Source: a virus. From it: a DNA stretch of 64,000 bases. Of this stretch, positions 5,995-16,460 are shown piece by piece. The stretch lies in IMG/VR virus record IMGVR_UViG_3300035180_002574, positions 64,001 to 128,000 of that record, one strand, 5' to 3'. Under the pieces are notes generated by a model. That model saw only the letters and a program-made list of their open reading frames with translations, was not told the DNA's origin and ran no database searches. Numbering within the stretch: the first letter of the stretch is position 1; each line of letters opens with the position of its first letter. The translations under genes were made by a program, and so were the position numbers.

Positions 5995-7494
5995 TTACTT
6001 TTTTCTCCACTTAACTGATGATGGAAGTTTCACATCAAATCCGTCTTCAGAACTATAGATTTTATATCTAGTTTTAGAGTGCTCTAGCAAGAATGGAGCC
6101 TGATCTATAAAATCAACTACGACAGCATTTTTCTTTGATTCATATTTTCTAATAACTCTTCCAACTCTCTGCAATGCTTTTACGGTAGATTTTCCGCCAC
6201 AAGCAATTACTAATCCAGATAAGCTTGGGATATCTACTCCAATATCAAAAATTCTAGATGCTAATATGCAATCTATTTTATGGTCTAATAGGTCTTTCTT
6301 AACTTTTTCTCGTTCATCTTTATCATTTTTACCATCAAGGATGGCGCACTTCATATGTTGTTTAAAAGTATCGTATAAAATCTTTCCGTGTTTTAAGCTA
6401 TTGAATAGGACCAAGGTTTGATAACCTTTGTCAACCATAGTTTTGGCAGCATCTAAAACTAATCCATTACGTACATCATTCTCAACCACATACTTCTTGT
6501 ATATGGATGGATACGATTTTTCTAATTCATATGGATATGGTGGAACGACTCTGAACCTAATTAGAGGTTGAGCTAAAAATCCGCCTTTGATTAGGCGAGA
6601 TGCGGAAATGTTAACAATATATTTTCCCAAAATGGCTTCTATAAGAAGATCCGCGCCATCATCTCTCCAAGGGCTTCCGCTTAGTCCATATAAATGTTCG
6701 GCAGATGAATGTTTGAATATTTGTTGAATAGTTTCACAGGCAGACATGTGGCATTCATCAATGATGTGAACTTTAGCTTCCCTCATCATCTTATTAATGT
6801 CAGTGTATTTGTTCTTGTTTAATGATTCTTCGTCATCATCTCCATCTAATAGAATGGATTTCTTATCCATACCAATGGCTTGACCTATTGTCCAAATGCT
6901 AGCTATGTTGATATCATGTATCTCACATTTACCATCACCTATAATACCAATAGGCTCATCAAAAATTTCAGAAAAAAATTGATGAAACTGATACAATAAA
7001 TCCTTGCCAATAACATAAATAATTGTCTTTTTCCCAAATTTTGCGGCAATTAATGCCGCAATTAGTGACTTGCCTCCACCCGTAGCTACTTTAATAATTC
7101 CTCGATCATTTTTGTCAACCGCGTCTAAAGTTTCTAATTGGTAGGGGTACGGAGATTTGTTTAGCTTTTCTAATTTGGGCAATATATCTTTTGGATTTCC
7201 CGTAGATTTGGGGGATCTTTTATCTATAATTTCAAACTCTTTTCCTGCATCAGAATAAAATTCTTTTACCCTATCTAATAGTCCGGTAGCAAATTGGAGG
7301 GTTGGGGTAAGCAATTTTTTCATCCCATCCCATTTAACAAACTCTCCATCTCTATTAAAAAACCCCCTGTAAGCAGCGGTGTGTTCCGCTCCTTGAACTT
7401 TGAAGGAAAGATGTTTATCGAGCGCCAGGATATGATCTAAATCAGATTCTTCTGTAATTTGGCAATTGTTATTTCTAATCGTTATTTTTGTCAT
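5995..7494 (-). CDS. Superfamily 2 DNA helicase, UvsW/RadD-like
   Basis: ATGGGKS, DECH, GLSGSP, QRVGRVIR; N-terminal SFKVQG..WDG..KLL resembles the UvsW N-domain. Confidence 0.9.
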   Translation of the reverse strand: MTKITIRNNNCQITEESDLDHILALDKHLSFKVQGAEHTAAYRGFFNRDGEFVKWDGMKKLLTPTLQFATGLLDRVKEFYSDAGKEFEIIDKRSPKSTGNPKDILPKLEKLNKSPYPYQLETLDAVDKNDRGIIKVATGGGKSLIAALIAAKFGKKTIIYVIGKDLLYQFHQFFSEIFDEPIGIIGDGKCEIHDINIASIWTIGQAIGMDKKSILLDGDDDEESLNKNKYTDINKMMREAKVHIIDECHMSACETIQQIFKHSSAEHLYGLSGSPWRDDGADLLIEAILGKYIVNISASRLIKGGFLAQPLIRFRVVPPYPYELEKSYPSIYKKYVVENDVRNGLVLDAAKTMVDKGYQTLVLFNSLKHGKILYDTFKQHMKCAILDGKNDKDEREKVKKDLLDHKIDCILASRIFDIGVDIPSLSGLVIACGGKSTVKALQRVGRVIRKYESKKNAVVVDFIDQAPFLLEHSKTRYKIYSSEDGFDVKLPSSVKWRKK

Positions 7495-7502
7495 GATAAA
7501 GT

Positions 7503-7542
7503 AGTACCGGATTAATATACCTTTACGTATATATCCGGTACT
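7503..7542. promoter_or_regulatory. Intergenic inverted repeat (10-bp perfect arms plus 6-bp inner stem) upstream of the helicase
   Basis: AGTACCGGAT 7503-7512 / ATCCGGTACT 7533-7542; ATATAC/GTATAT inner pair. Confidence 0.65.
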
Positions 7543-7565
7543 CTTTTCTCGACATTTTTTAATGA

Positions 7566-8279
7566 TTATGGCTGGGCGACAATCGATGCAATTGCGCTTG
7601 CTAAAGCGTTATCCTGACCCGAATGTAGGTTAAGAATCAATGTAGTAAGATCATTAGAAGAGCCTCTAAATACGTTATGATCCACAACACACTTGATGCC
7701 CGGAACATGATATAAAGATCCGCCTGGGGCAGCAACGTCTCCGGACTTTTGCCAAATTAACCAACCGCTTCCTTTCCAAATGGTTGGAACAAAATTATCA
7801 GGATTAGTTACATATCCTGCCAGCCATAAAGGATACTTTTGTAATGTGGCGGTTACGGTGGGATCTACCTTACCAGCATATTGATTAAAGAAAGGTCCTC
7901 CCGTGTAAACGAAAGGAATCTTTCCAGACCTATTCTCTACCGTTTGTAACCAGGTCAAAACCCACTTAACAAATACCGCTCCAGAAAGAGTTGATTGCTC
8001 AATGTCTAAGGCTAAGAAATCAAATGGAGTTAATTGCCCTACCATATCTAAAAAGAAGTTGGCTTCTTTAACTGGGTCGTTTTGAGTTAATCCATAATGA
8101 TATGTCCCGCGAATTAGTCCGGCATCTTTAATGCCGTTCCAATTATTATGAAACTGAGAGTCAACAATATTCAATCCTTGCGTAGCTTTTGCCGCCGCAA
8201 AACTAACTTGATTAGAAGCAGCCACTGCCTTCCAATCTACTAACCCTTGTGGATATGCAACATCAATCCCATCAATCAT
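7566..8279 (-). CDS. GH25 muramidase, probable endolysin
   Basis: IDGIDV..QG.VDW, KATQG, GTYHY, LDIEQ (DxE), LWLAGY, WQ.S, VDHNVF; start ATG 8279 with GAGGA RBS. Confidence 0.92.
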   Translation of the reverse strand: MIDGIDVAYPQGLVDWKAVAASNQVSFAAAKATQGLNIVDSQFHNNWNGIKDAGLIRGTYHYGLTQNDPVKEANFFLDMVGQLTPFDFLALDIEQSTLSGAVFVKWVLTWLQTVENRSGKIPFVYTGGPFFNQYAGKVDPTVTATLQKYPLWLAGYVTNPDNFVPTIWKGSGWLIWQKSGDVAAPGGSLYHVPGIKCVVDHNVFRGSSNDLTTLILNLHSGQDNALASAIASIVAQP

Positions 8280-8485
8280 GCTTCCTCGTCTTCTTTGAAC
8301 CAAAAACTTTGTATGTCAGAGATTTTAAAATAATGGAGTTTTGCTCACTTATCACCAAGGATTAGCCAGGTACAACTATCAGCAGTTCCAACAATGGTTC
8401 CTGGATGCACAGTATGGCTTCCAACCATTACTAAGCACACTTCTTTTCCTTTTAAATCTACGTCATGCCAAAAATTAAATTTCAT
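8276..8485 (-). pseudogene. 69-codon Sm-like gene with one in-frame TGA (pseudogene or readthrough); not in ORF track
   Basis: MKFNFWHDVDLKGKEVCLVMVGSHTVHPGTIVGTADSCTWLILGDK*AKLHYFKISDIQSFWFKEDEEA*; TGA 8345-8347; final TGA overlaps the endolysin ATG. Confidence 0.65.
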
Positions 8486-8495
8486 AGTTCTAATC

Positions 8496-8900
8496 TTACT
8501 TATAGTTTATTTTACACCTGCGATTAATGCCTTCTGGTTTTTGATCGTTAGATGATTTGAATGCCCATGTTTTGCCACGGCTTCTCAAACATTTAGGACA
8601 TAAGGTAATGCACATTTCATCAGAGAAATATTCGCCATCTGATTTTTCATTTTTATGAAAGCGCACGTTTGTTGAATATATTCTCTGCCTGGTTCTAAAA
8701 ATGTTATTACCCGGAATAGATGACATCATAGATGATGATGCGAAAGATCTAATTCTACGGCGCCGCGGCGCCATTTTGTATGTCCAGAAAAACATTCGAG
8801 TGATCGTGGATCCAGATAATTGTATCTTAGATCCGCATAACGGACACCTAGATTTTGCACCAAAAGTTGAAGATAATGTTATTTCTGTTTTACTTGTCAT
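8496..8900 (-). CDS. Basic zinc-finger-like protein (CPLC...CPKC) coupled to the tubulin gene
   Basis: Two CxxC pairs flanking an Arg/Ser-rich segment; ATGA overlap with the tubulin stop. Confidence 0.6.
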   Translation of the reverse strand: MTSKTEITLSSTFGAKSRCPLCGSKIQLSGSTITRMFFWTYKMAPRRRRIRSFASSSMMSSIPGNNIFRTRQRIYSTNVRFHKNEKSDGEYFSDEMCITLCPKCLRSRGKTWAFKSSNDQKPEGINRRCKINYK

Positions 8901-10261
8901 TTTCTACGATCCACGACTCCACTTACCAATTTACCAAACGATGAGGACTTGGCTGCAATTTTTTCTTTAATCTTCTGTGCTGCAGATACCGTTTCATTGG
9001 TGCCCGTATCAATCTGAAGATTGAGATTTCTCTGCTCATCTTTACCCTTAACGGCTTGCATGTGCTCATGAGCATCTTTTTTTAACTGAGTTACTCGTGA
9101 TTCGGGCAATCCCAAACCAGTGAACAATGAATAAACCTTAACAACAGGATCAGGAATATCTATCGTATAGATTCCTTTAAAAACTCCTTTTGGAGTACCG
9201 CACTGATCATTGATCATAGCTAACGCATATGTAATACTAGAACTTGGAATTTTTGACCAAACTTCTTTATTTGCCGCGATAATGACACCAACATATTTGG
9301 ACTGCTTAAGATCAAAACCGCCAGCCAACAAGTTCCCATTTAGATTATTAACGACAGCCTCAGCAATGGCTGTGTCCTCTGCATAATTATCTACGGTTAA
9401 TTCTCCGTAAACTGTCAAGCCCTCGCCGTCGGTAAATAACTTACCCCATTCCATAGGATCTAATCCTTTGACAGATGATGGCATAGAGGACAATGTATTG
9501 AAAGAATCAATTGGATCAACAATTGCCTTATTAGCAATCCCATAAAATTCTACCTGGCTTACATTAGCATAAATAGCTTCAATCTTAGCATTGTCTACGA
9601 CAATAAGATTGTTAACCTTTTTTGTCTGAGTTAACTTAGCTAGCTTAGATAATGTTTCAAGAGCATTTGCTTTGGTTTGGGCGTCTTCCGTATCCATTGG
9701 AAGAACCGTGATAACAACCAATGGTTTGCCTTGCTCAGCAAGAAGGTCAACCAAAGTCTCACAAGATCCGGCTCCAGAGCCGCCTCCCAAGCTAAGACAA
9801 AGAACATTTACTTGTGCATTTGATAGCTTATCATTAACTAATTGTGCAATTTCTCCACGATGAGCTTCGGCAGCAGCTTTACCAATTTCAATTTCTTTGG
9901 CGGCGCCTCCCAAACCATATTCTAATAATAATTTGTTTGAATCTGGGACATCAATAAACTTCAAATCCTGCATAGCGGTATTGATGACTATCGAATCATA
10001 ACCTAACTTATAGAAGGTTTCTGCGATACGTGATCCAGCCTGACCAGACCCAACGACACCTAATGCTAGACTTCTTTCCTTCTTTGTTACGATTTTAGCT
10101 GACATATTGTTCTCCTGCTGTTTCGCCTGACTTTTTGCTTTTAATGCGGCAAGTTTGCTCAAATCAATTGAGTCTTCTGATTTTTTTACTTCTGAATTGG
10201 AAACATCATCCACTAATTCTTCTTTTGATTGATTTTCTTCTGTTACTGACGTTGCACCCAT
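8897..10261 (-). CDS. Tubulin/FtsZ-superfamily GTPase (PhuZ/TubZ/CetZ-like)
   Basis: GSGQAGSRIA (T1), INTA, GLGGAAK (T3), LGGGSGAG signature (T4), VDN, LDPME (T7-like); AGGAG RBS. Confidence 0.93.
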   Translation of the reverse strand: MGATSVTEENQSKEELVDDVSNSEVKKSEDSIDLSKLAALKAKSQAKQQENNMSAKIVTKKERSLALGVVGSGQAGSRIAETFYKLGYDSIVINTAMQDLKFIDVPDSNKLLLEYGLGGAAKEIEIGKAAAEAHRGEIAQLVNDKLSNAQVNVLCLSLGGGSGAGSCETLVDLLAEQGKPLVVITVLPMDTEDAQTKANALETLSKLAKLTQTKKVNNLIVVDNAKIEAIYANVSQVEFYGIANKAIVDPIDSFNTLSSMPSSVKGLDPMEWGKLFTDGEGLTVYGELTVDNYAEDTAIAEAVVNNLNGNLLAGGFDLKQSKYVGVIIAANKEVWSKIPSSSITYALAMINDQCGTPKGVFKGIYTIDIPDPVVKVYSLFTGLGLPESRVTQLKKDAHEHMQAVKGKDEQRNLNLQIDTGTNETVSAAQKIKEKIAAKSSSFGKLVSGVVDRRK

Positions 10262-10299
10262 TAAATTCTCCTAAATAAAAATTTTCTATTTATAATATA

Positions 10300-11253
10300 T
10301 CACTTTAAAAACCATTGATTTGCTAAATACCACGAAATACATTGCTCAATTCCATCTTTAAACTTATACTTTGGTTCCCACCCTAAAGATTTAATCTTTG
10401 AAGAATTGATACTATATCTGAAATCATGCCCCGGTCTATCTTTGACAAATTCAATTAAATCATGTCCTTTGCCCATTACATTACAGATCTTTTGAACAAC
10501 CTCTATATTTGTATATTCTTGATTTGCCGTAATATTATATGTTTGATTGTCTTCGCCTTTATTAAGGACCTCCAATATGCCGGAGCAATTATCAAATACA
10601 TGTGTCCAATCTCTAATCTGTAGCCCCTGACCGTAGATAGGTATCTTTTGATCGTTTAAAATGCATTTTATAATCTTGGGGATGAACTTCTCCATTGTTT
10701 GCCTTGGTCCATAATTATTGGATGACCTAGTAATGTTATAAGTTAGTCCATAACTTTGATGAGCTGCCTTTACCAATAATTCTCCGGCTGCTTTGGATGC
10801 CGAATAAGGATTTCTAGGATTAAGTGCGGACTCCTCAGACCAAGGAGGATCAGATTCCTTGGTTAATTGACCATATACTTCATCTGTAGATATGTAGATC
10901 AATCTCTCGACATTATGTTTAATGCAGGAATTGATTATTGTTTGCGTTCCTAGCACATTGGATGTGATAAATGAGTTCGGCTCTTGAAGGGAAGAGTCTA
11001 CAAAAGTTTCCGCCGCCCCATGAATAACAATGTTAGGTTGCTCAAATTTGAAAATCGTATCAATAATATGTTGATCTCGGATATCTGCCACATAGAATAT
11101 ATGACTTTTGTTTATGTAGAGAGAGTTTTTGAACTTAGGGTCCACCCTATCCACACTGACGAATTGGTATGGTTGTTTTTCATAAATAGCTTTTCTAATG
11201 AAATTTCCAAAAATAAAACCACAAGTGCCAGTTATTAAAACTTTCTTATTCAT
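10300..11253 (-). CDS. rmlB: dTDP-glucose 4,6-dehydratase-like extended SDR
   Basis: GTCGFIFG (variant Rossmann motif), HGAAETFVDSS, STDEVYG, YSASK, SNNYGP, RDWTHV, DRPGHDFRYS. Confidence 0.92.
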   Translation of the reverse strand: MNKKVLITGTCGFIFGNFIRKAIYEKQPYQFVSVDRVDPKFKNSLYINKSHIFYVADIRDQHIIDTIFKFEQPNIVIHGAAETFVDSSLQEPNSFITSNVLGTQTIINSCIKHNVERLIYISTDEVYGQLTKESDPPWSEESALNPRNPYSASKAAGELLVKAAHQSYGLTYNITRSSNNYGPRQTMEKFIPKIIKCILNDQKIPIYGQGLQIRDWTHVFDNCSGILEVLNKGEDNQTYNITANQEYTNIEVVQKICNVMGKGHDLIEFVKDRPGHDFRYSINSSKIKSLGWEPKYKFKDGIEQCISWYLANQWFLK

Positions 11254-11255
11254 TA

Positions 11256-11526
11256 TCATCCATTCAATGCATTCCAAAATGTGACTAAAATCTCTCTAGA
11301 CTCTTCTTCACTTATTTTTGAAAATCTAGGGATCTTGTTTCCGTCCAGTTCTACCTCATCTAAGAACATAGATGAGGGGCGCACCCAATAGGCGCATGCT
11401 CCCCAATTGTCATCCACATATAACGCCCTATACATGACCATGTTGTCAAGATTTTCTGAGTGTTTTTGCAATACCCAATACCATATATAAATTACCTGTA
11501 TAGTGGCGATAAACTCCTTGAGTCAT
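11256..11526 (-). pseudogene. DUF1653-like gene broken by a 1-nt insertion
   Basis: MTQGVYRHYTGNLYMVLGIAK in one frame, HSENLDNMVMYRALY...WVRPSSMFLDEV..PRF in the +1 frame; junction is the A5 run at 11463-11467. Confidence 0.85.
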
Positions 11527-11529
11527 TTA

Positions 11530-12357
11530 TTATTCCTTGTATAAATTGTATTTGGTGCTAGTTTCATATAGCTCCCTATCAAGAACTGCTTTATTTGTCC
11601 ATTTATCTCTTAAGAGAGTAAGGTTGTGATTCATAAATAATTTATTGGCGGGATTCTTTTTAAGAGAGGCGCTTTCTTCATGAAAGATATTAGTTTTTCC
11701 ACAATATACAATTTTCTTTTTAAGATTATGCTTAATGGATAAACAAAAATCTACATCATCAAATGCCCAATGAAACTTTTCATCCATTCCATGGATTCCG
11801 GACTTATTTGTCGTACAAACTTCTTTGAAATATCCGGCTCTAGTTAAAAGAACAGCTCCAGTTACTACCTGAAATTCCCTATTTTTTTCTGCATTGCTAT
11901 CAGACTTTTCATTAAGCCTATAGTGAATAGGGGCATTATATCTAGAATCAAATACTACTCCAGCGTGTTGTAGTTTATCAGTTCCAGTAAACAACAGACG
12001 GGCGCCAACCGCTCCCACCGCCGAATCACTTTCTAAAATCTTTTTCATGGAATGAATTGATTTTGTATCATTTATAATGATATCATTATTCAATAACATT
12101 ATCATATCATCATCTTTAGGATTTGCTTCTTTGAAGAGGAAGTTTACTCCTTCTGAAAAGTTTTGAGAATTATTATGGTAAGGAATAACCTTGATGTTTT
12201 CTTTCCATTGAGACGCCATTTCTAGAGTATTATCTCTAGAGGCATTATCCTTGATAAGCCAAGTATAATCCAAATCATGCAAAGCCGGAATAAGAGATTC
12301 TTTTAATTTAGATAGTTTCTCTGCGCCATTCCAGGTTAGGGTTAATAGATAAAGCAT
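11530..12357 (-). CDS. Glycosyltransferase family 2
   Basis: LTLTWN, DNASRD, NFSEGVN, LLNND, VTGAVLL, FDDVDF. Confidence 0.9.
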   Translation of the reverse strand: MLYLLTLTWNGAEKLSKLKESLIPALHDLDYTWLIKDNASRDNTLEMASQWKENIKVIPYHNNSQNFSEGVNFLFKEANPKDDDMIMLLNNDIIINDTKSIHSMKKILESDSAVGAVGARLLFTGTDKLQHAGVVFDSRYNAPIHYRLNEKSDSNAEKNREFQVVTGAVLLTRAGYFKEVCTTNKSGIHGMDEKFHWAFDDVDFCLSIKHNLKKKIVYCGKTNIFHEESASLKKNPANKLFMNHNLTLLRDKWTNKAVLDRELYETSTKYNLYKE

Positions 12358-12376
12358 TTTGTCAGCCTTTTAATTG

Positions 12377-13381
12377 TTATAAACCTACTTTTATAGTTGC
12401 CATTACTGCCACTTCGCCACCAGTACCTACCTGAATAGATGGACCAATATATAAGTTGTTCATGAGTGGAATGTGTTTACCTACGTTATACGCAAAAGGA
12501 GTGAATGAAAACTGTGGGGTTTTACTAACCATACCATAACCAACGCCCAATTCTAAAACAGAAAAATCTGGTTGTTTTTTGAACTGTCCGTAACTCATAA
12601 TTCCTACGCTAATATTTGGAGTAAATTCAGCGTGAAGTGGTGAGGTAAGCGAAACTCCCGCATCTATTCCCATAAATAATCTCGGATTCCACCAAGACCA
12701 TTTTGGTTCTGGATACTCTTGTTTTGTTTCTGCCTTTGAAATAGGCACCACATAGGTTTTACCATCAACTGTGACGGTAAACTTATTGTAGAAATAAGTT
12801 CTTTGGTTCTCGTCCGTACCAACAACTGATGAGACCGAATATTCTCTTGCTTTAATATCTATATTCCAAGGGTCCTTTTGCCAGGCTGAAAAACCTACAG
12901 AACCAATTGGTACTTTTTGATCTCCGAACTTTTCGTTCAAAGATAGATTCTGTTGCGCTTTTAAATATCCATAAGGATCAACATTAGGGCATACCGTTCC
13001 GTCTGGACATACTGGATCTGGTTGTGGATTTGGGTTAACAGGTCCAGTATTGGTGGTTGGAATATGGTTTCCAATTTGAGGATTACTTATAACGGTTACA
13101 ACATTAACCGCCGCAACCTCTGCATGAAGTTTTTTTAAATCATCCTGAATAACTTTAATATTTACGCCATTATCTTTAATGAACTGATCGATGTCTTTTT
13201 TTGTAGCGTATTCATTTTGACTGCGAACTATACCGTCAGCCAACTGTTTTTGTGCAACTACATGAGTCTCTATTGCTTGTTGGCGATTAGCAATTTCTAT
13301 TTGTTTGTAAATAATAAATGACAATAATCCAACAATTAACATTGTTCCTAAAGCAATTAGGATTTTATTTCTAAGAGACAT
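12377..13381 (-). CDS. Membrane-anchored protein with coiled coil and beta-rich C-terminus; spanin-like candidate
   Basis: N-terminal TM (ILIALGTMLIVGLLSFIIY), coiled coil, alternating beta strands ending VAVMATIKVGL; start probably ATG 13381. Confidence 0.5.
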   Translation of the reverse strand: MSLRNKILIALGTMLIVGLLSFIIYKQIEIANRQQAIETHVVAQKQLADGIVRSQNEYATKKDIDQFIKDNGVNIKVIQDDLKKLHAEVAAVNVVTVISNPQIGNHIPTTNTGPVNPNPQPDPVCPDGTVCPNVDPYGYLKAQQNLSLNEKFGDQKVPIGSVGFSAWQKDPWNIDIKAREYSVSSVVGTDENQRTYFYNKFTVTVDGKTYVVPISKAETKQEYPEPKWSWWNPRLFMGIDAGVSLTSPLHAEFTPNISVGIMSYGQFKKQPDFSVLELGVGYGMVSKTPQFSFTPFAYNVGKHIPLMNNLYIGPSIQVGTGGEVAVMATIKVGL

Positions 13382-13395
13382 TTTTGTACGCTTTC

Positions 13396-14226
13396 TTACA
13401 CTTGCAAAGCAGGGCACCAATGAATTGTTCTGCCTTCGGGAGTAGTTTCTGATTTAATTTTGTTTCCTAGTGGATCAATCTTTTTCCCATAGACTTTGAA
13501 TTGGCTAGAATATTTGCCTTCTGCGCCATAAGCAGTCTTATAGGTTTGAATTGTGGCTCCCTGGTAATTATATGACTCATGCATTACATTTTTGATGGAC
13601 TCACATATTAAATCTATTTCAGATGATGATAAAGAGCTGCACGATCGCCACGGAGAAACCTTTGCTTGATATAACGCTTCGGCTCGAATGTAGTTACCTG
13701 TGCCTGAAAAAATATTCTGATCCAATAAAACCTGACCAATTGGCTTGTTAGATTTTGAGAGAGTTCTCTTTATCCATTTTTCATAATCTGTATATGAATC
13801 TCGAAATGGATCCCAACCCAACTCACTTATCTTGTCTAATAATTTATTTTGTCCTTTAACGAATTTAATAGTTCCAAAATGTCTGGGATCATTAAAGAAT
13901 AATGATTTTATTTCTTTATCATCTTCATAAAAGACTTCCAGGCAGGGATGTTTCCCCTCGGTGGGGGACCATTGACCAGTCATACCAAAGGTACAGTACA
14001 TATACCAATCATTATCAAATGACCAATACATAAATTTACCATGAGTTGAAATATCTTTCACTATAACTGGACCAGCCGATACTTCTTTCAGAAAATATTG
14101 AAGACCAATAATTGGATCATGAGCATATCGAGAATTTGGTGCGGCATGAGCCGTAATCATTCGCTTCCCTTTAATCAAAGGGAAAATCAAAGCCGCACTT
14201 AATCTTACTTCGGGACCTTCGGGCAT
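13396..14226 (-). CDS. nei: Fpg/Nei DNA glycosylase, Nei-type, zincless finger
   Basis: MPEGPEV N-terminus (start ATG 14226), HGKFMYW, FGMTG, DPRHFG, H2TH LLDQ..FSGTGNYIRAEALY; C-terminus GRTIHWCPALQ lacks the Cys4 finger. Confidence 0.92.
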   Translation of the reverse strand: MPEGPEVRLSAALIFPLIKGKRMITAHAAPNSRYAHDPIIGLQYFLKEVSAGPVIVKDISTHGKFMYWSFDNDWYMYCTFGMTGQWSPTEGKHPCLEVFYEDDKEIKSLFFNDPRHFGTIKFVKGQNKLLDKISELGWDPFRDSYTDYEKWIKRTLSKSNKPIGQVLLDQNIFSGTGNYIRAEALYQAKVSPWRSCSSLSSSEIDLICESIKNVMHESYNYQGATIQTYKTAYGAEGKYSSQFKVYGKKIDPLGNKIKSETTPEGRTIHWCPALQV

Positions 14227-14240
14227 TTTGCAATACACTC

Positions 14241-14595
14241 CTATATGAAAGCAATTAATTTATGCATTTTTAATAAGAAGTCGTCAATAAAATCTTGAGC
14301 TTCTTGAATTGATTTAAAGCTCAGCGGTTTATCATCCACCATCAATGGGGAGCATTTCCCCCAAAATGGCTTAACCATAAACTCCAGCTCGCCAACAAAA
14401 TATACTTGAAATACTTAATTTTTCCAATAATCAGTTCGTATTAATCTTACACCCGACCTAACGCCACCATACAAATAATTCTCGTGATTTTCTCCAGACA
14501 AATCACCGTACCACTCATCTCTATATCCTTATAGAGGTGGCTTCGCGTTTCCATTCAGCGAGTGTAAATTTTCCAATTGTTATTTCTTTTGCCAT
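14241..14595 (-). pseudogene. Probable ~117-aa small gene broken by a 1-nt insertion and a TAA
   Basis: MAKEITIGKFTLAEWKREATSI / GYRDEWYGDLSGENHENYLYGGVRSGVRLIRTDYWKN*VFQVYFVGELEF...QEAQDFIDDFLLKMHKLIAFI*; span = 118 codons + 1 nt; fills the gap exactly. Confidence 0.5.
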
Positions 14596-15317
14596 TTGTT
14601 TACAAAAATCTGTCTAGCCCGCTTATACAATTGATAAGTGTTCAACTGTTGACTGGTTTGTTTTCCAAAATGGACAACCGGAATATCCACCACCTGCATG
14701 GGAATTTGTAATTCGCGTGCCCTGAATGATAGATCAGTATCTTCAAAATACGCCAACCCAAACTCTTCAGAGAAAATTTGTGGCGGAGGCGTATAATCAT
14801 GAATCAAAAGAGGATTTCTTGGAATTTCTAATTTACTCCAAACATCTTTAGAAGCTGCCAAGCACCATCCCGACATATAGGATTTTCCATCAAGCACTTT
14901 ATTGGCTTCTTGAACGAAATTCAAATCTTTATCTAATTGACCCATGGTTGGTCCGACCAACCCATTCCCACACTTTTCAATCAATTTTTGAGTCCACGTT
15001 GTGTGGTCTGCGCGCACGCGAATATCGTTATTCAAAAATAATACATTAGGCGCACTAGCTAAAGCGTAACCCTCGTTACACGCCACGGCAAATCCTTGAT
15101 TTGCTGGAAGTCTATGATAGACGATTGCCTCGTTATCATGAAGATTTTCTTGTGTTACGTCTATGCTTCCATTATCAACTACAATGATCTCATGATTTTT
15201 AGGAAGTTTGAATAGGTCAGTTAAGCAGGCTTTGGTAAAATTCCATTTATTGAATACTGGAATCACGATAGATAATACTGGGTTCTGACGCATAGCCATA
15301 TCTGTAATATGCTTCAT
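14580..15317 (-). CDS. Glycosyltransferase family 2
   Basis: SIVIPVFN, VVDNGSID, NQGFAVACNEG, FLNND, YFEDTDL, HFGKQT. Confidence 0.9.
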   Translation of the reverse strand: MKHITDMAMRQNPVLSIVIPVFNKWNFTKACLTDLFKLPKNHEIIVVDNGSIDVTQENLHDNEAIVYHRLPANQGFAVACNEGYALASAPNVLFLNNDIRVRADHTTWTQKLIEKCGNGLVGPTMGQLDKDLNFVQEANKVLDGKSYMSGWCLAASKDVWSKLEIPRNPLLIHDYTPPPQIFSEEFGLAYFEDTDLSFRARELQIPMQVVDIPVVHFGKQTSQQLNTYQLYKRARQIFVNKWQKK

Positions 15318-16460
15318 TTATTTACATAGTCCCACAAATTGTTCAGCCACTTTTCTCCAGGTAAAATTGGGAAGAAGTTCTTGCATTTTTGGAGAAAATT
15401 TTTTGTGATAATCGCCATAATTCTGAATTAAATCTTTCAGCTTGGTGGCAGCCTCGTCTACATAAGGATCATACGCGCGCGCGTAGGGAGACGGCTCCCA
15501 ATATTGCATTTTCAAATCGGCTCGAATCTCTTTGCCGCCAATCAATATTGAGTTGTCATCATTCATGTATTCTAATTGACCGCCATAACGAGGAGCAACT
15601 ACCACCTTATTGGCGGCGAAGCCCTCTAATCCTGGCATCCAGAAACACTCGGCGTGTGCCATAGTATAAACCACGTCGCATGCGTTGTAAAGGGGCTCGA
15701 TGTCCGTAATAAATTGGTCCAGAATTTCTACGTCTGCGTGATTTTTAAATTTTGCCTCCCATTTGTTAAAAATTTCTCCGAATGGGATATTGAATTGCGA
15801 GTTGGGTCCTTTCTTAGATATTTTAAGAACCAAACAAACATCATCTTTTTTTGTAAAAGCTTTACCGTAAGCTTCCAATAAACCAGGAATGTTTTTTCGC
15901 AAATGCGGCTGCGCAATATTGGCTAATATTTTATATTTTTTTGTTGTTTTTAGTGGATATTTTCCAAGATTTTGAAATCTATCTAAATGAATTCCGTGAG
16001 GAATTACTATTTGCCGATCTTCTGGAATTCCGTTTTCCACAAATATATTTTTAGAAAACTGAGAGGAAGGAACCACTTTATCTATAGAAAAAGCAGCTTT
16101 AGCAAAACCCTTCGGTAAAACTGTTGTTTCATAATTCCAAATACCAAATCTATTATTGTTACCTCGAATAAAATAATTAGGGAAATTTACCATGGCAGTA
16201 TATGATAATTGCATATCATAAGTTGATGATAGTTTAGAGGTAATTCTGTCCTGGAAAAACTTAGGCGTCATTGCCCTAAAATCTTCTTCTTCAGCGAACC
16301 CTCTCAAGTTTGCTTTAAGATCTTCCGGAAAATGAGTAATACCATTAGTAGAAAATAAATCCACATCATGACCCATATGGATTAATTCTCTGGAAATATT
16401 TTGAGCAACCACGCTCCACGAATGATTTTTGCCTAAAAATCCAAACCAACAAATTTTCAT
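15318..16460 (-). CDS. Glycosyltransferase family 4 (GT-B)
   Basis: NIAQPHLRKNIPGLLEAY, LYNACDV..AHAECFWMPGLEGFA (Ex7E), GGQLEY. Confidence 0.9.
   Translation of the reverse strand: MKICWFGFLGKNHSWSVVAQNISRELIHMGHDVDLFSTNGITHFPEDLKANLRGFAEEEDFRAMTPKFFQDRITSKLSSTYDMQLSYTAMVNFPNYFIRGNNNRFGIWNYETTVLPKGFAKAAFSIDKVVPSSQFSKNIFVENGIPEDRQIVIPHGIHLDRFQNLGKYPLKTTKKYKILANIAQPHLRKNIPGLLEAYGKAFTKKDDVCLVLKISKKGPNSQFNIPFGEIFNKWEAKFKNHADVEILDQFITDIEPLYNACDVVYTMAHAECFWMPGLEGFAANKVVVAPRYGGQLEYMNDDNSILIGGKEIRADLKMQYWEPSPYARAYDPYVDEAATKLKDLIQNYGDYHKKFSPKMQELLPNFTWRKVAEQFVGLCK

Follow-up and report, generated by a model that had tools for sequence, protein, structure and literature searches.

A TubZ-like tubulin GTPase, probably made as two isoforms, is a core gene product of nucleus-less megaphages

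The subject of this work is a tubulin gene located on the minus strand of a 64,000-nt window (the whole stretch of DNA that was analysed, to which the coordinates refer unless another locus is named), corresponding to bases 64001–128000 of the 181,177-bp IMG/VR virus record IMGVR_UViG_3300035180_002574. The gene encodes an intact TubZ-like tubulin GTPase under selection, and it is a core gene, subject to strong purifying selection, in a clade of megaphages that lack the phage nucleus. According to the conserved translation signals within its reading frame, it is probably made as a long (454 amino acids, aa) and a short (402 aa, canonical TubZ-length) isoform. The product most likely functions as a cytomotive filament that would organise phage DNA or assembly during infection, and the combined account, in which a TubZ-like core tubulin of nucleus-less megaphages is made in two isoforms and forms filaments organising the infection, is favoured here with moderate confidence. 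The gene and the main parts of its product are the following:

8897–10261, minus strand: tubulin/TubZ-like GTPase gene, long form; an uninterrupted open reading frame (ORF) of 454 aa plus stop, identified by Pfam, AlphaFold2 and structural matches
9488–10069, minus strand: GTP-binding (N-terminal) domain, approximately residues 65–258, with the T1 loop GSGQAGS and the signature GGGSGAG
9104–9487, minus strand: activation (C-terminal) domain, approximately residues 259–386, of TubZ-like_C type, with the T7 loop LDPME (D268, E271)
8900–9103, minus strand: long helix H11 (387–415) and basic tail (416–454), from the secondary structure of the model and conservation

The initial annotation of the window had described a tubulin/FtsZ GTPase core with the motifs GQAG, GGGSGAG, DN and LDPME, and each of these was found in place: GSGQAGS at residues 71–77 (T1 loop), GGGSGAG at 159–165 (signature loop), D223-N224 and LDPME at 267–271 (T7 loop). 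The Pfam family Tubulin (PF00091) matched residues 69–231 (E = 1.3e-16) and TubZ-like_C (PF22453) matched residues 255–393 (E = 8.6e-6), both over their curated cut-offs. In an alignment of 80 diverse homologues reaching down to ~25% identity, G73, G76, D99, G160, G161, G163, D268 and G363 were invariant and D223 was invariant or nearly so, while residue 271, the second acidic position of the T7 loop, was E or D in 26 of 26 closer relatives. The AlphaFold2 model built from the same alignment showed the two-domain fold with a mean predicted local distance difference test score (pLDDT) of 88 and a predicted template modelling score (pTM) of 0.81; a complex prediction of the homodimer with GTP and Mg scored 0.00, giving no verdict either way.

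The protein was assigned as TubZ-like because of its profile and fold scores, not because of its position in trees. When solved structures were searched with the single sequence by phmmer, the best match was the pXO1-type TubZ/RepX 4ei7 (E = 1.3e-13), followed by FtsZs (~1e-9 to 1e-7), c-st TubZ (9e-7), phiKZ TubZ/PhuZ (2.5e-4) and PhuZ-201 (0.05). With a profile of the 80 homologues RepX/TubZ 4ei7 reached 181 bits (E = 2.8e-52), the match covering both domains and running into helix H11, while CetZ2, TubZ-Bt and archaeal FtsZ gave 133, 128 and 127 bits, respectively, the E-value of the next family being 1e-37. Foldseek placed TubZ-Bt and TubZ-Bc at the top of the structures resembling the model, and VIA-align gave Z scores of 41.0 for TubZ-Bc (root mean square deviation 2.3 Å over 341 residues, model 61–407), 40.0 for TubZ-Bt (model 57–426), 37.2 for CetZ2, 33.5 for c-st TubZ and 31–33 for FtsZs; PhuZ was missing from the top 50 rows. 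The protein is closest to plasmid TubZ/RepX, then to CetZ, then to FtsZ, with PhuZ far behind, and the margin is moderate. A possible separate phage cytoskeleton system had been proposed in the initial annotation, which holds insofar as the protein stands outside the PhuZ-chimallin system; it is, however, a member of the TubZ-like radiation (best matches 4ei7 and 2xka) and not a wholly separate kind.

The plasmid proteins that gave the best profile and fold matches (Z 40–41), namely TubZ/RepX 4ei7 and the TubZs of pBtoxis (2xka, 3j4s) and pBsph, share with the megaphage protein the G-x-G-Q-x-G type T1 loop, the GGGxGxG signature, the acidic T7 loop, the long helix H11 and, after it, a C-terminal tail that is flexible and basic. 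They are just ~18–25% identical to it, and the megaphage protein differs from them by an added N-terminal module of ~52 aa and a predicted internal start, by the lack of an adjacent TubR gene or centromere, and by being strongly conserved and encoded on a giant, virulent-looking phage. The second-best profile and fold matches (Z 35–37) were the CetZs of Euryarchaeota (4b45, 4b46, 3zid), which are archaeal cell-shape proteins and resemble the megaphage protein by profile and fold alone. Trees against known families, as suggested in the initial annotation, were calculated with phiKZ PhuZ, E. coli FtsZ, phage G gp138 and the TubZs of pBtoxis, pBsph and c-st as references. They recovered the protein (P0001) in a well-supported clade of representative clusters (44 in a FastTree tree), while the long-branched references found no stable place.

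The suggestion of two isoforms came from a second start site, which lies at codon 53 and carries the same signals as the annotated one:

10268–10272, minus strand: Shine–Dalgarno (SD) sequence AGGAG of Met1, 6 nt upstream of the start codon
10112–10116, minus strand: internal SD sequence AGGAG within codons 49–50, 6 nt upstream of Met53
10103–10105, minus strand: internal start codon Met53 with conserved start and SD, the predicted start of the 402-aa short isoform

Both Met1 and Met53 are preceded by the identical arrangement AGGAG-N6-ATG. When 43 distinct coding sequences from relatives were compared, 41 had ATG at codon 53, and the last two had TTG and GTG. Among all 454 columns of the alignment, only column 53 (41/43) and column 1 (38/42) had a start codon together with an SD sequence in nearly all sequences, the next best column reaching 9/43. 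The codons underlying the internal SD deviate from the usage in the rest of the gene: Glu50 is encoded by GAG in 37 of 41 sequences compared with 27% GAG gene-wide, and Gln49 by CAG in 22 of 29 compared with 28%, while the adjacent Gln45 and Gln48 codons follow the usual preference for CAA. As this excess of GAG and CAG shows, the internal SD is kept by synonymous codon choice. Relatives at 39–56% identity also have an ATG or GTG 17–18 codons ahead of the T1 loop, in most cases with a purine-rich SD-like element before it, and the short product would start within a few residues of the starts of plasmid TubZ and phage G gp138.

The segment that distinguishes the long form from the short one is the N-terminal extension:

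10106–10261, minus strand: N-terminal extension, residues 1–52, with an acidic half followed by a basic helix (34–51) containing the KLAxLKAK motif

Structural alignments begin at model residue 57–65 (57–61 for the TubZ structures), and residues 1 to ~56 have no counterpart in the solved TubZ, CetZ or FtsZ structures. The first 33 residues of the extension are acidic with a net charge of −7, and residues 34–51 are predicted to form a helix (pLDDT ~80). That this is an N-terminal membrane-targeting helix was considered and rejected, the helix being not amphipathic (hydrophobic moment, muH, 0.18). The extension is in frame across ~50 relatives, and two motifs in it, E-x-[IV]-x-D-D and K-L-A-x-L-K-A-K, persist down to 40% identity. 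Pairwise ratios of nonsynonymous to synonymous substitution rates (dN/dS) were ~0.13 for residues 2–60, ~0.036 for the core and 0.07 for the tail, values that are rough because synonymous sites were saturated; the extension, too, is under purifying selection. The 52-aa charged N-terminal extension described in the initial annotation is therefore real, as is the long helical C-terminal tail ending in VDRRK, but the description of these extensions as atypical did not stand, since they are typical within the large clade to which the protein belongs: members of the nearest clade carry 51–167 residues ahead of the T1 loop, so an extension is the rule there.

At the other end of the protein the alignment to TubZ-Bt extends to residue 426, and the model has a helix at 387–415. 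Conservation extends to R411, to S-x-F-G-K at residue 440 and to the C-terminal end [VI]-D-R-R-K, the last four residues (DRRK) being kept in 98% of the sequences. The net charge of the tail is +4 for residues 427–446 and +2 for 447–454. Short motifs conserved amid variable tails resemble binding sites, and judged by their conservation the motifs at the two ends of the protein are candidate docking sites for cargo or neighbouring subunits.

The record itself was rated 42% complete by CheckV, and its relatives show what kind of phage it derives from. In IMG/VR, 54 contigs, the longest of 480 kb, carry homologues at 66–89% identity, and a larger protein collection contained >1000 homologues, the best 120 being 81–89% identical and lying on contigs of up to 511 kb. 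Four relatives, of 434–481 kb, were rated complete, one of them having direct terminal repeats. The public runs containing this DNA are sediment and microbial-mat metagenomes. Among isolated phages the tail sheath matched only those of Eggerthella phage LE2-3 (28% identity over 31% of the length) and phage G (28% over 18%), and because of these weak matches the clade is regarded as remote from every isolated phage including phage G. It is thus an uncultured clade of 430–510-kb megaphages of sediment and microbial mats.

Within this clade the tubulin is the best-conserved gene of its 20-kb neighbourhood, with a median identity of 81%, compared with 78% for the helicase, 74% for the DnaC-like protein and 69% for DnaB. 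It is single-copy in the four complete relatives, to which it is 84, 76, 73 and 66% identical, while the corresponding values for the tail sheath are 65, 71, 72 and 52%. Homing endonuclease genes flank the tubulin gene and inteins interrupt some of the homologues, both features being typical of conserved genes with essential functions. A library clustered at 50% identity shows the size of the wider family: 1780 clusters matched at E ≤ 0.001, of which 525 also passed E ≤ 1e-10 and 151 passed E ≤ 1e-30. Neither megablast of the region against phages nor viral scans with the distant members P0205 and P0181 gave a match. When 50,697 phage records were searched by tblastn with the 454-aa protein, the result was likewise blank, but this blank is unreliable because gp138 of phage G is a clear homologue (95 bits in pairwise blastp, confirmed by hhalign).

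On the account favoured here, the 402-aa short form would be a canonical TubZ and make the bulk of the polymer, and the 454-aa long form with its acidic-then-basic N-terminal module would co-assemble with it to dock, nucleate or cross-link the filaments. In the infected cell these filaments would serve to place or transport the phage DNA as it replicates, or else large intermediates of assembly. The favoured functional analogy is PhuZ of the phiKZ-like Chimalliviridae, which is likewise a tubulin of very large phages and acts in lytic growth. A more far-reaching proposal, which we put forward tentatively, is that the two-isoform, TubZ-derived tubulin represents a third kind of phage cytoskeleton, in which the N-terminal module of the long form would anchor, nucleate or cross-link the filaments to cargo and thereby replace a TubR-type adaptor.

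Several observations weigh against organisation of the infection by two-isoform filaments. GTP binding and head-to-tail polymerisation into dynamic filaments as in TubZ are expected from homology alone. The nearest characterised relatives (the TubZs of pBtoxis, pXO1-type plasmids, pBsph and c-st) act in partition and not in lytic organisation, and the positions of TubZ and PhuZ were unstable in trees with 5–6 references, the long branches shifting between methods. Among representatives more distant still, just about half have a methionine near position 53, and the conserved SD-like element at Met53 might conceivably serve a different purpose. Sub-lineages differ in the gene that follows the tubulin, and no cargo or adaptor gene was recognised. 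No RNA run was listed among the public runs containing this stretch. Finally, the lack of a tyrosine integrase in the four complete relatives would fit a plasmid-like prophage as well.

The last point leads to the main rival explanation, that the protein is a type III (TubZRC-like) partition motor segregating a low-copy extrachromosomal prophage or carrier-state genome, as in c-st and the Bacillus plasmids, which we consider rather improbable. Its closest characterised relatives being partition TubZs, the protein also has a basic tail like the TubR-binding tail of TubZ, and two of the complete relatives were labelled "provirus" by IMG/VR. The genes around the tubulin point in the other direction. 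Upstream there is only a 38-bp gap after an NAD-dependent sugar dehydratase gene, and no TubR-like gene adjoins the tubulin, the small nearby genes of the relatives encoding homing endonucleases, Sm-like proteins and unknowns; this negative concerns the immediate vicinity of the tubulin, and an adaptor that has diverged may lie in another part of the genome. When a centromere (tubC/tubS) was sought, no iteron family or tandem array was found in the 7400–11600 part of the window, and no consistent ParB was found in the four complete relatives. TubZ of c-st (3v3t) is likewise a TubZ-type tubulin encoded by a phage (fold Z 32.5–33.5); however, it belongs to a plasmid prophage and has TubR upstream and TubY downstream (PMC7950403), neither of which was seen beside the megaphage tubulin. 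Moreover, the megaphage gene is very conserved while the characterised TubZs are very divergent (long branches, ~20–25% identity), and no close relative was found in one genome each of 185,579 prokaryote species, scanned with this protein and with one distant family member.

Phage G offers evidence on both sides of the partition question. A Pfam search of its genome found one tubulin gene, gp138 (NC_023719, 78686–79816, 376 aa), which is annotated as a "putative FtsZ-like cell division protein" and lies in the nucleotide-metabolism and replication region. The gp138 protein is homologous to the megaphage tubulin over the whole core, including the motif after the last strand (blastp E = 6e-26, 22% identity; hhalign E = 3.6e-38 over 324 columns), and comes from a phage of comparable size (~500 kb); in contrast to the megaphage protein it lacks an N-terminal extension and its tail is shorter, and the two phages are only remotely related. 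Upstream of gp138, and abutting it with no gap (L065:6390-7817), lies gp137, a gene of 98 codons whose product gave sub-threshold winged-helix matches to TrmB, DUF3116 and DUF4364. Genuine TubR proteins likewise give only sub-threshold winged-helix matches, and gp137-gp138 could be a TubR-TubZ pair not described as such. In five genomes of the megaphage clade, however, no homologue of gp137 was found.

The possibility that the protein is a PhuZ-type spindle centring a proteinaceous phage nucleus, as in Chimalliviridae, appears very improbable. A match to PHROG 4733 ("tubulin PhuZ"), the very large genome and one quick tree that set phiKZ PhuZ within the megaphage clade, on a long branch, could be taken in its favour. 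The PHROG match is, however, limited to residues 133–217 (E = 2.6e-10), and of the tubulin families compared PhuZ stands farthest away in both sequence and fold, its structures being the weakest tubulin matches. The C-terminal tail of PhuZ is acidic and PhuZ phages have a chimallin shell, whereas the megaphage tail is basic and the shell is lacking: the search for chimallin-like genes that the initial annotation had called for was run with PF25677 and phiKZ gp054, and neither gave a match at E ≤ 1, whether in the 181-kb fragment or in the genomes of the four complete relatives. This result, together with the DnaB-, DnaC- and UvsW-like replication genes, agrees with the earlier view that the phage is not phiKZ-like.

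There is next to nothing to recommend the idea of an FtsZ mimic that disturbs or takes over host cell division, possibly acquired recently from a host: the source databases label the protein "cell division GTPase FtsZ", and the FtsZ equivalog TIGR00065 gives a weak match, but this match reaches 65.5 bits where the cut-off is 295.2, by which a recent host FtsZ origin (named in the initial annotation as what would speak against its proposal) is ruled out, identity to any FtsZ is ~20%, TubZ and CetZ both outrank FtsZ in profile and in fold, the TubZ-type H11 and tail are present, and the family forms a deep phage-borne radiation (the 151 clusters at E ≤ 1e-30) without a close cellular copy.

Two groups of phage tubulins are recognised in reviews, TubZ of c-st and PhuZ (PMC7950403), and these two were the ones named in the initial annotation, which omitted phage G gp138, a protein already annotated as FtsZ/tubulin-like. 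In a 2025 study of phage G the FtsZ/tubulin-like GTPase appears with a KEGG CetZ orthologue assignment; the study reports it as undetected by proteomics and leaves its function open (PMC12484599). Iyer et al. noted two distinct FtsZ/tubulin representatives in jumbo phages (PMC7824862), and Al-Shayeb et al. mentioned only "tubulin homologues (PhuZ)" in huge phages (PMC7162821). No description of the present tubulin clade was found in the literature. Only two phage tubulin systems are understood, partition by c-st TubZ and the PhuZ spindle that operates with the chimallin nucleus, and the protein described here defines a large, very conserved third group occurring in dozens of 430–510-kb genomes, that is, in the biggest class of phages, without a nucleus shell or a recognisable adaptor. 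The gene points to an undescribed phage cytoskeleton. Should its filaments organise infection, the need for transport inside the cell may be common to very large phages in general and not confined to the nucleus formers, and the predicted pair of long and short forms, if true, would be a new way of regulating a prokaryotic tubulin.

The gene order around the tubulin is shared across the clade. It begins with genes for a membrane-anchored 347-aa protein, a family 2 glycosyltransferase (GT2) and an RmlB-like NAD-dependent dehydratase, followed by the tubulin, and continues with a variable slot, a UvsW-like helicase, two unknown genes, a DnaC/IstB-like ATPase and the DnaB helicase. An Fpg-type glycosylase and further glycosyltransferases are encoded upstream of this conserved block. 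In the window, a sugar-modification cluster comprising the RmlB-like dehydratase, two GT2s, a GT4-like gene and DUF1653 occupies 10300–16460 on the minus strand, between the tubulin and large structural genes, and an Fpg/Nei-type DNA glycosylase is located at 13396–14238. A scan for promoters and terminators gave results at chance level.

The variable slot of the relatives contains GIY-YIG homing endonucleases, the Sm-like DUF6897, a Lys/Arg-rich protein or a glycoside hydrolase family 25 (GH25) lysozyme, or it is empty. In some loci the homing endonuclease genes, of GIY-YIG/NUMOD3 type, lie directly beside the tubulin (L002:9225-9947, L046:11365-12012). In about 22 of the 54 loci the tubulin is followed by small genes with overlaps of 0–4 nt (e.g., L007:11362-12287, L013:11359-12429), which encode an acidic 86-aa protein, one or two Sm-like (DUF6897) proteins and a Lys/Arg-rich coiled-coil protein. 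These overlapping genes are candidate partners of the tubulin in those lineages; the Sm-like and basic small genes were not found in the 181-kb fragment. Here the slot holds a GH25 lysozyme gene preceded by the following ORF:

8496–8900, minus strand: basic zinc-ribbon ORF of 134 aa with CxxC...CxxC pairs, the ATG of which overlaps the tubulin stop codon (ATGA)

Of all the loci, L030 and L031 alone have homologues of this ORF at the same position (29.7% identity over 138 aa); the other ~50 loci lack it. The homologues are fast-evolving and have in common the motifs F-x-x-x-S-R-C and F-H-K and a terminal N-R-R-x-K-x-x-Y. Since it occurs in only 2–3 of ~54 loci, the ORF was rejected as a general adaptor of the tubulin.

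Some further peculiarities were seen in the relatives. In two of the complete relatives the tail-sheath homologues carry one in-frame stop each, TGA in G001:C1:291737-294577 and TAG in G004:C1:145991-148807, which could be due to sequencing error, an intron or recoding. One 818-aa homologue of the tubulin (P0235) combines a tubulin-like part and a PilM/FtsA-like actin-fold module in one polypeptide, being either a true fusion or a gene-calling artefact. Three other homologues, P0170, P0184 and P0171, are 930–980 aa long owing to an intein-like insert, and P0170 matched the intein N-terminal splicing region and intein-containing proteins.

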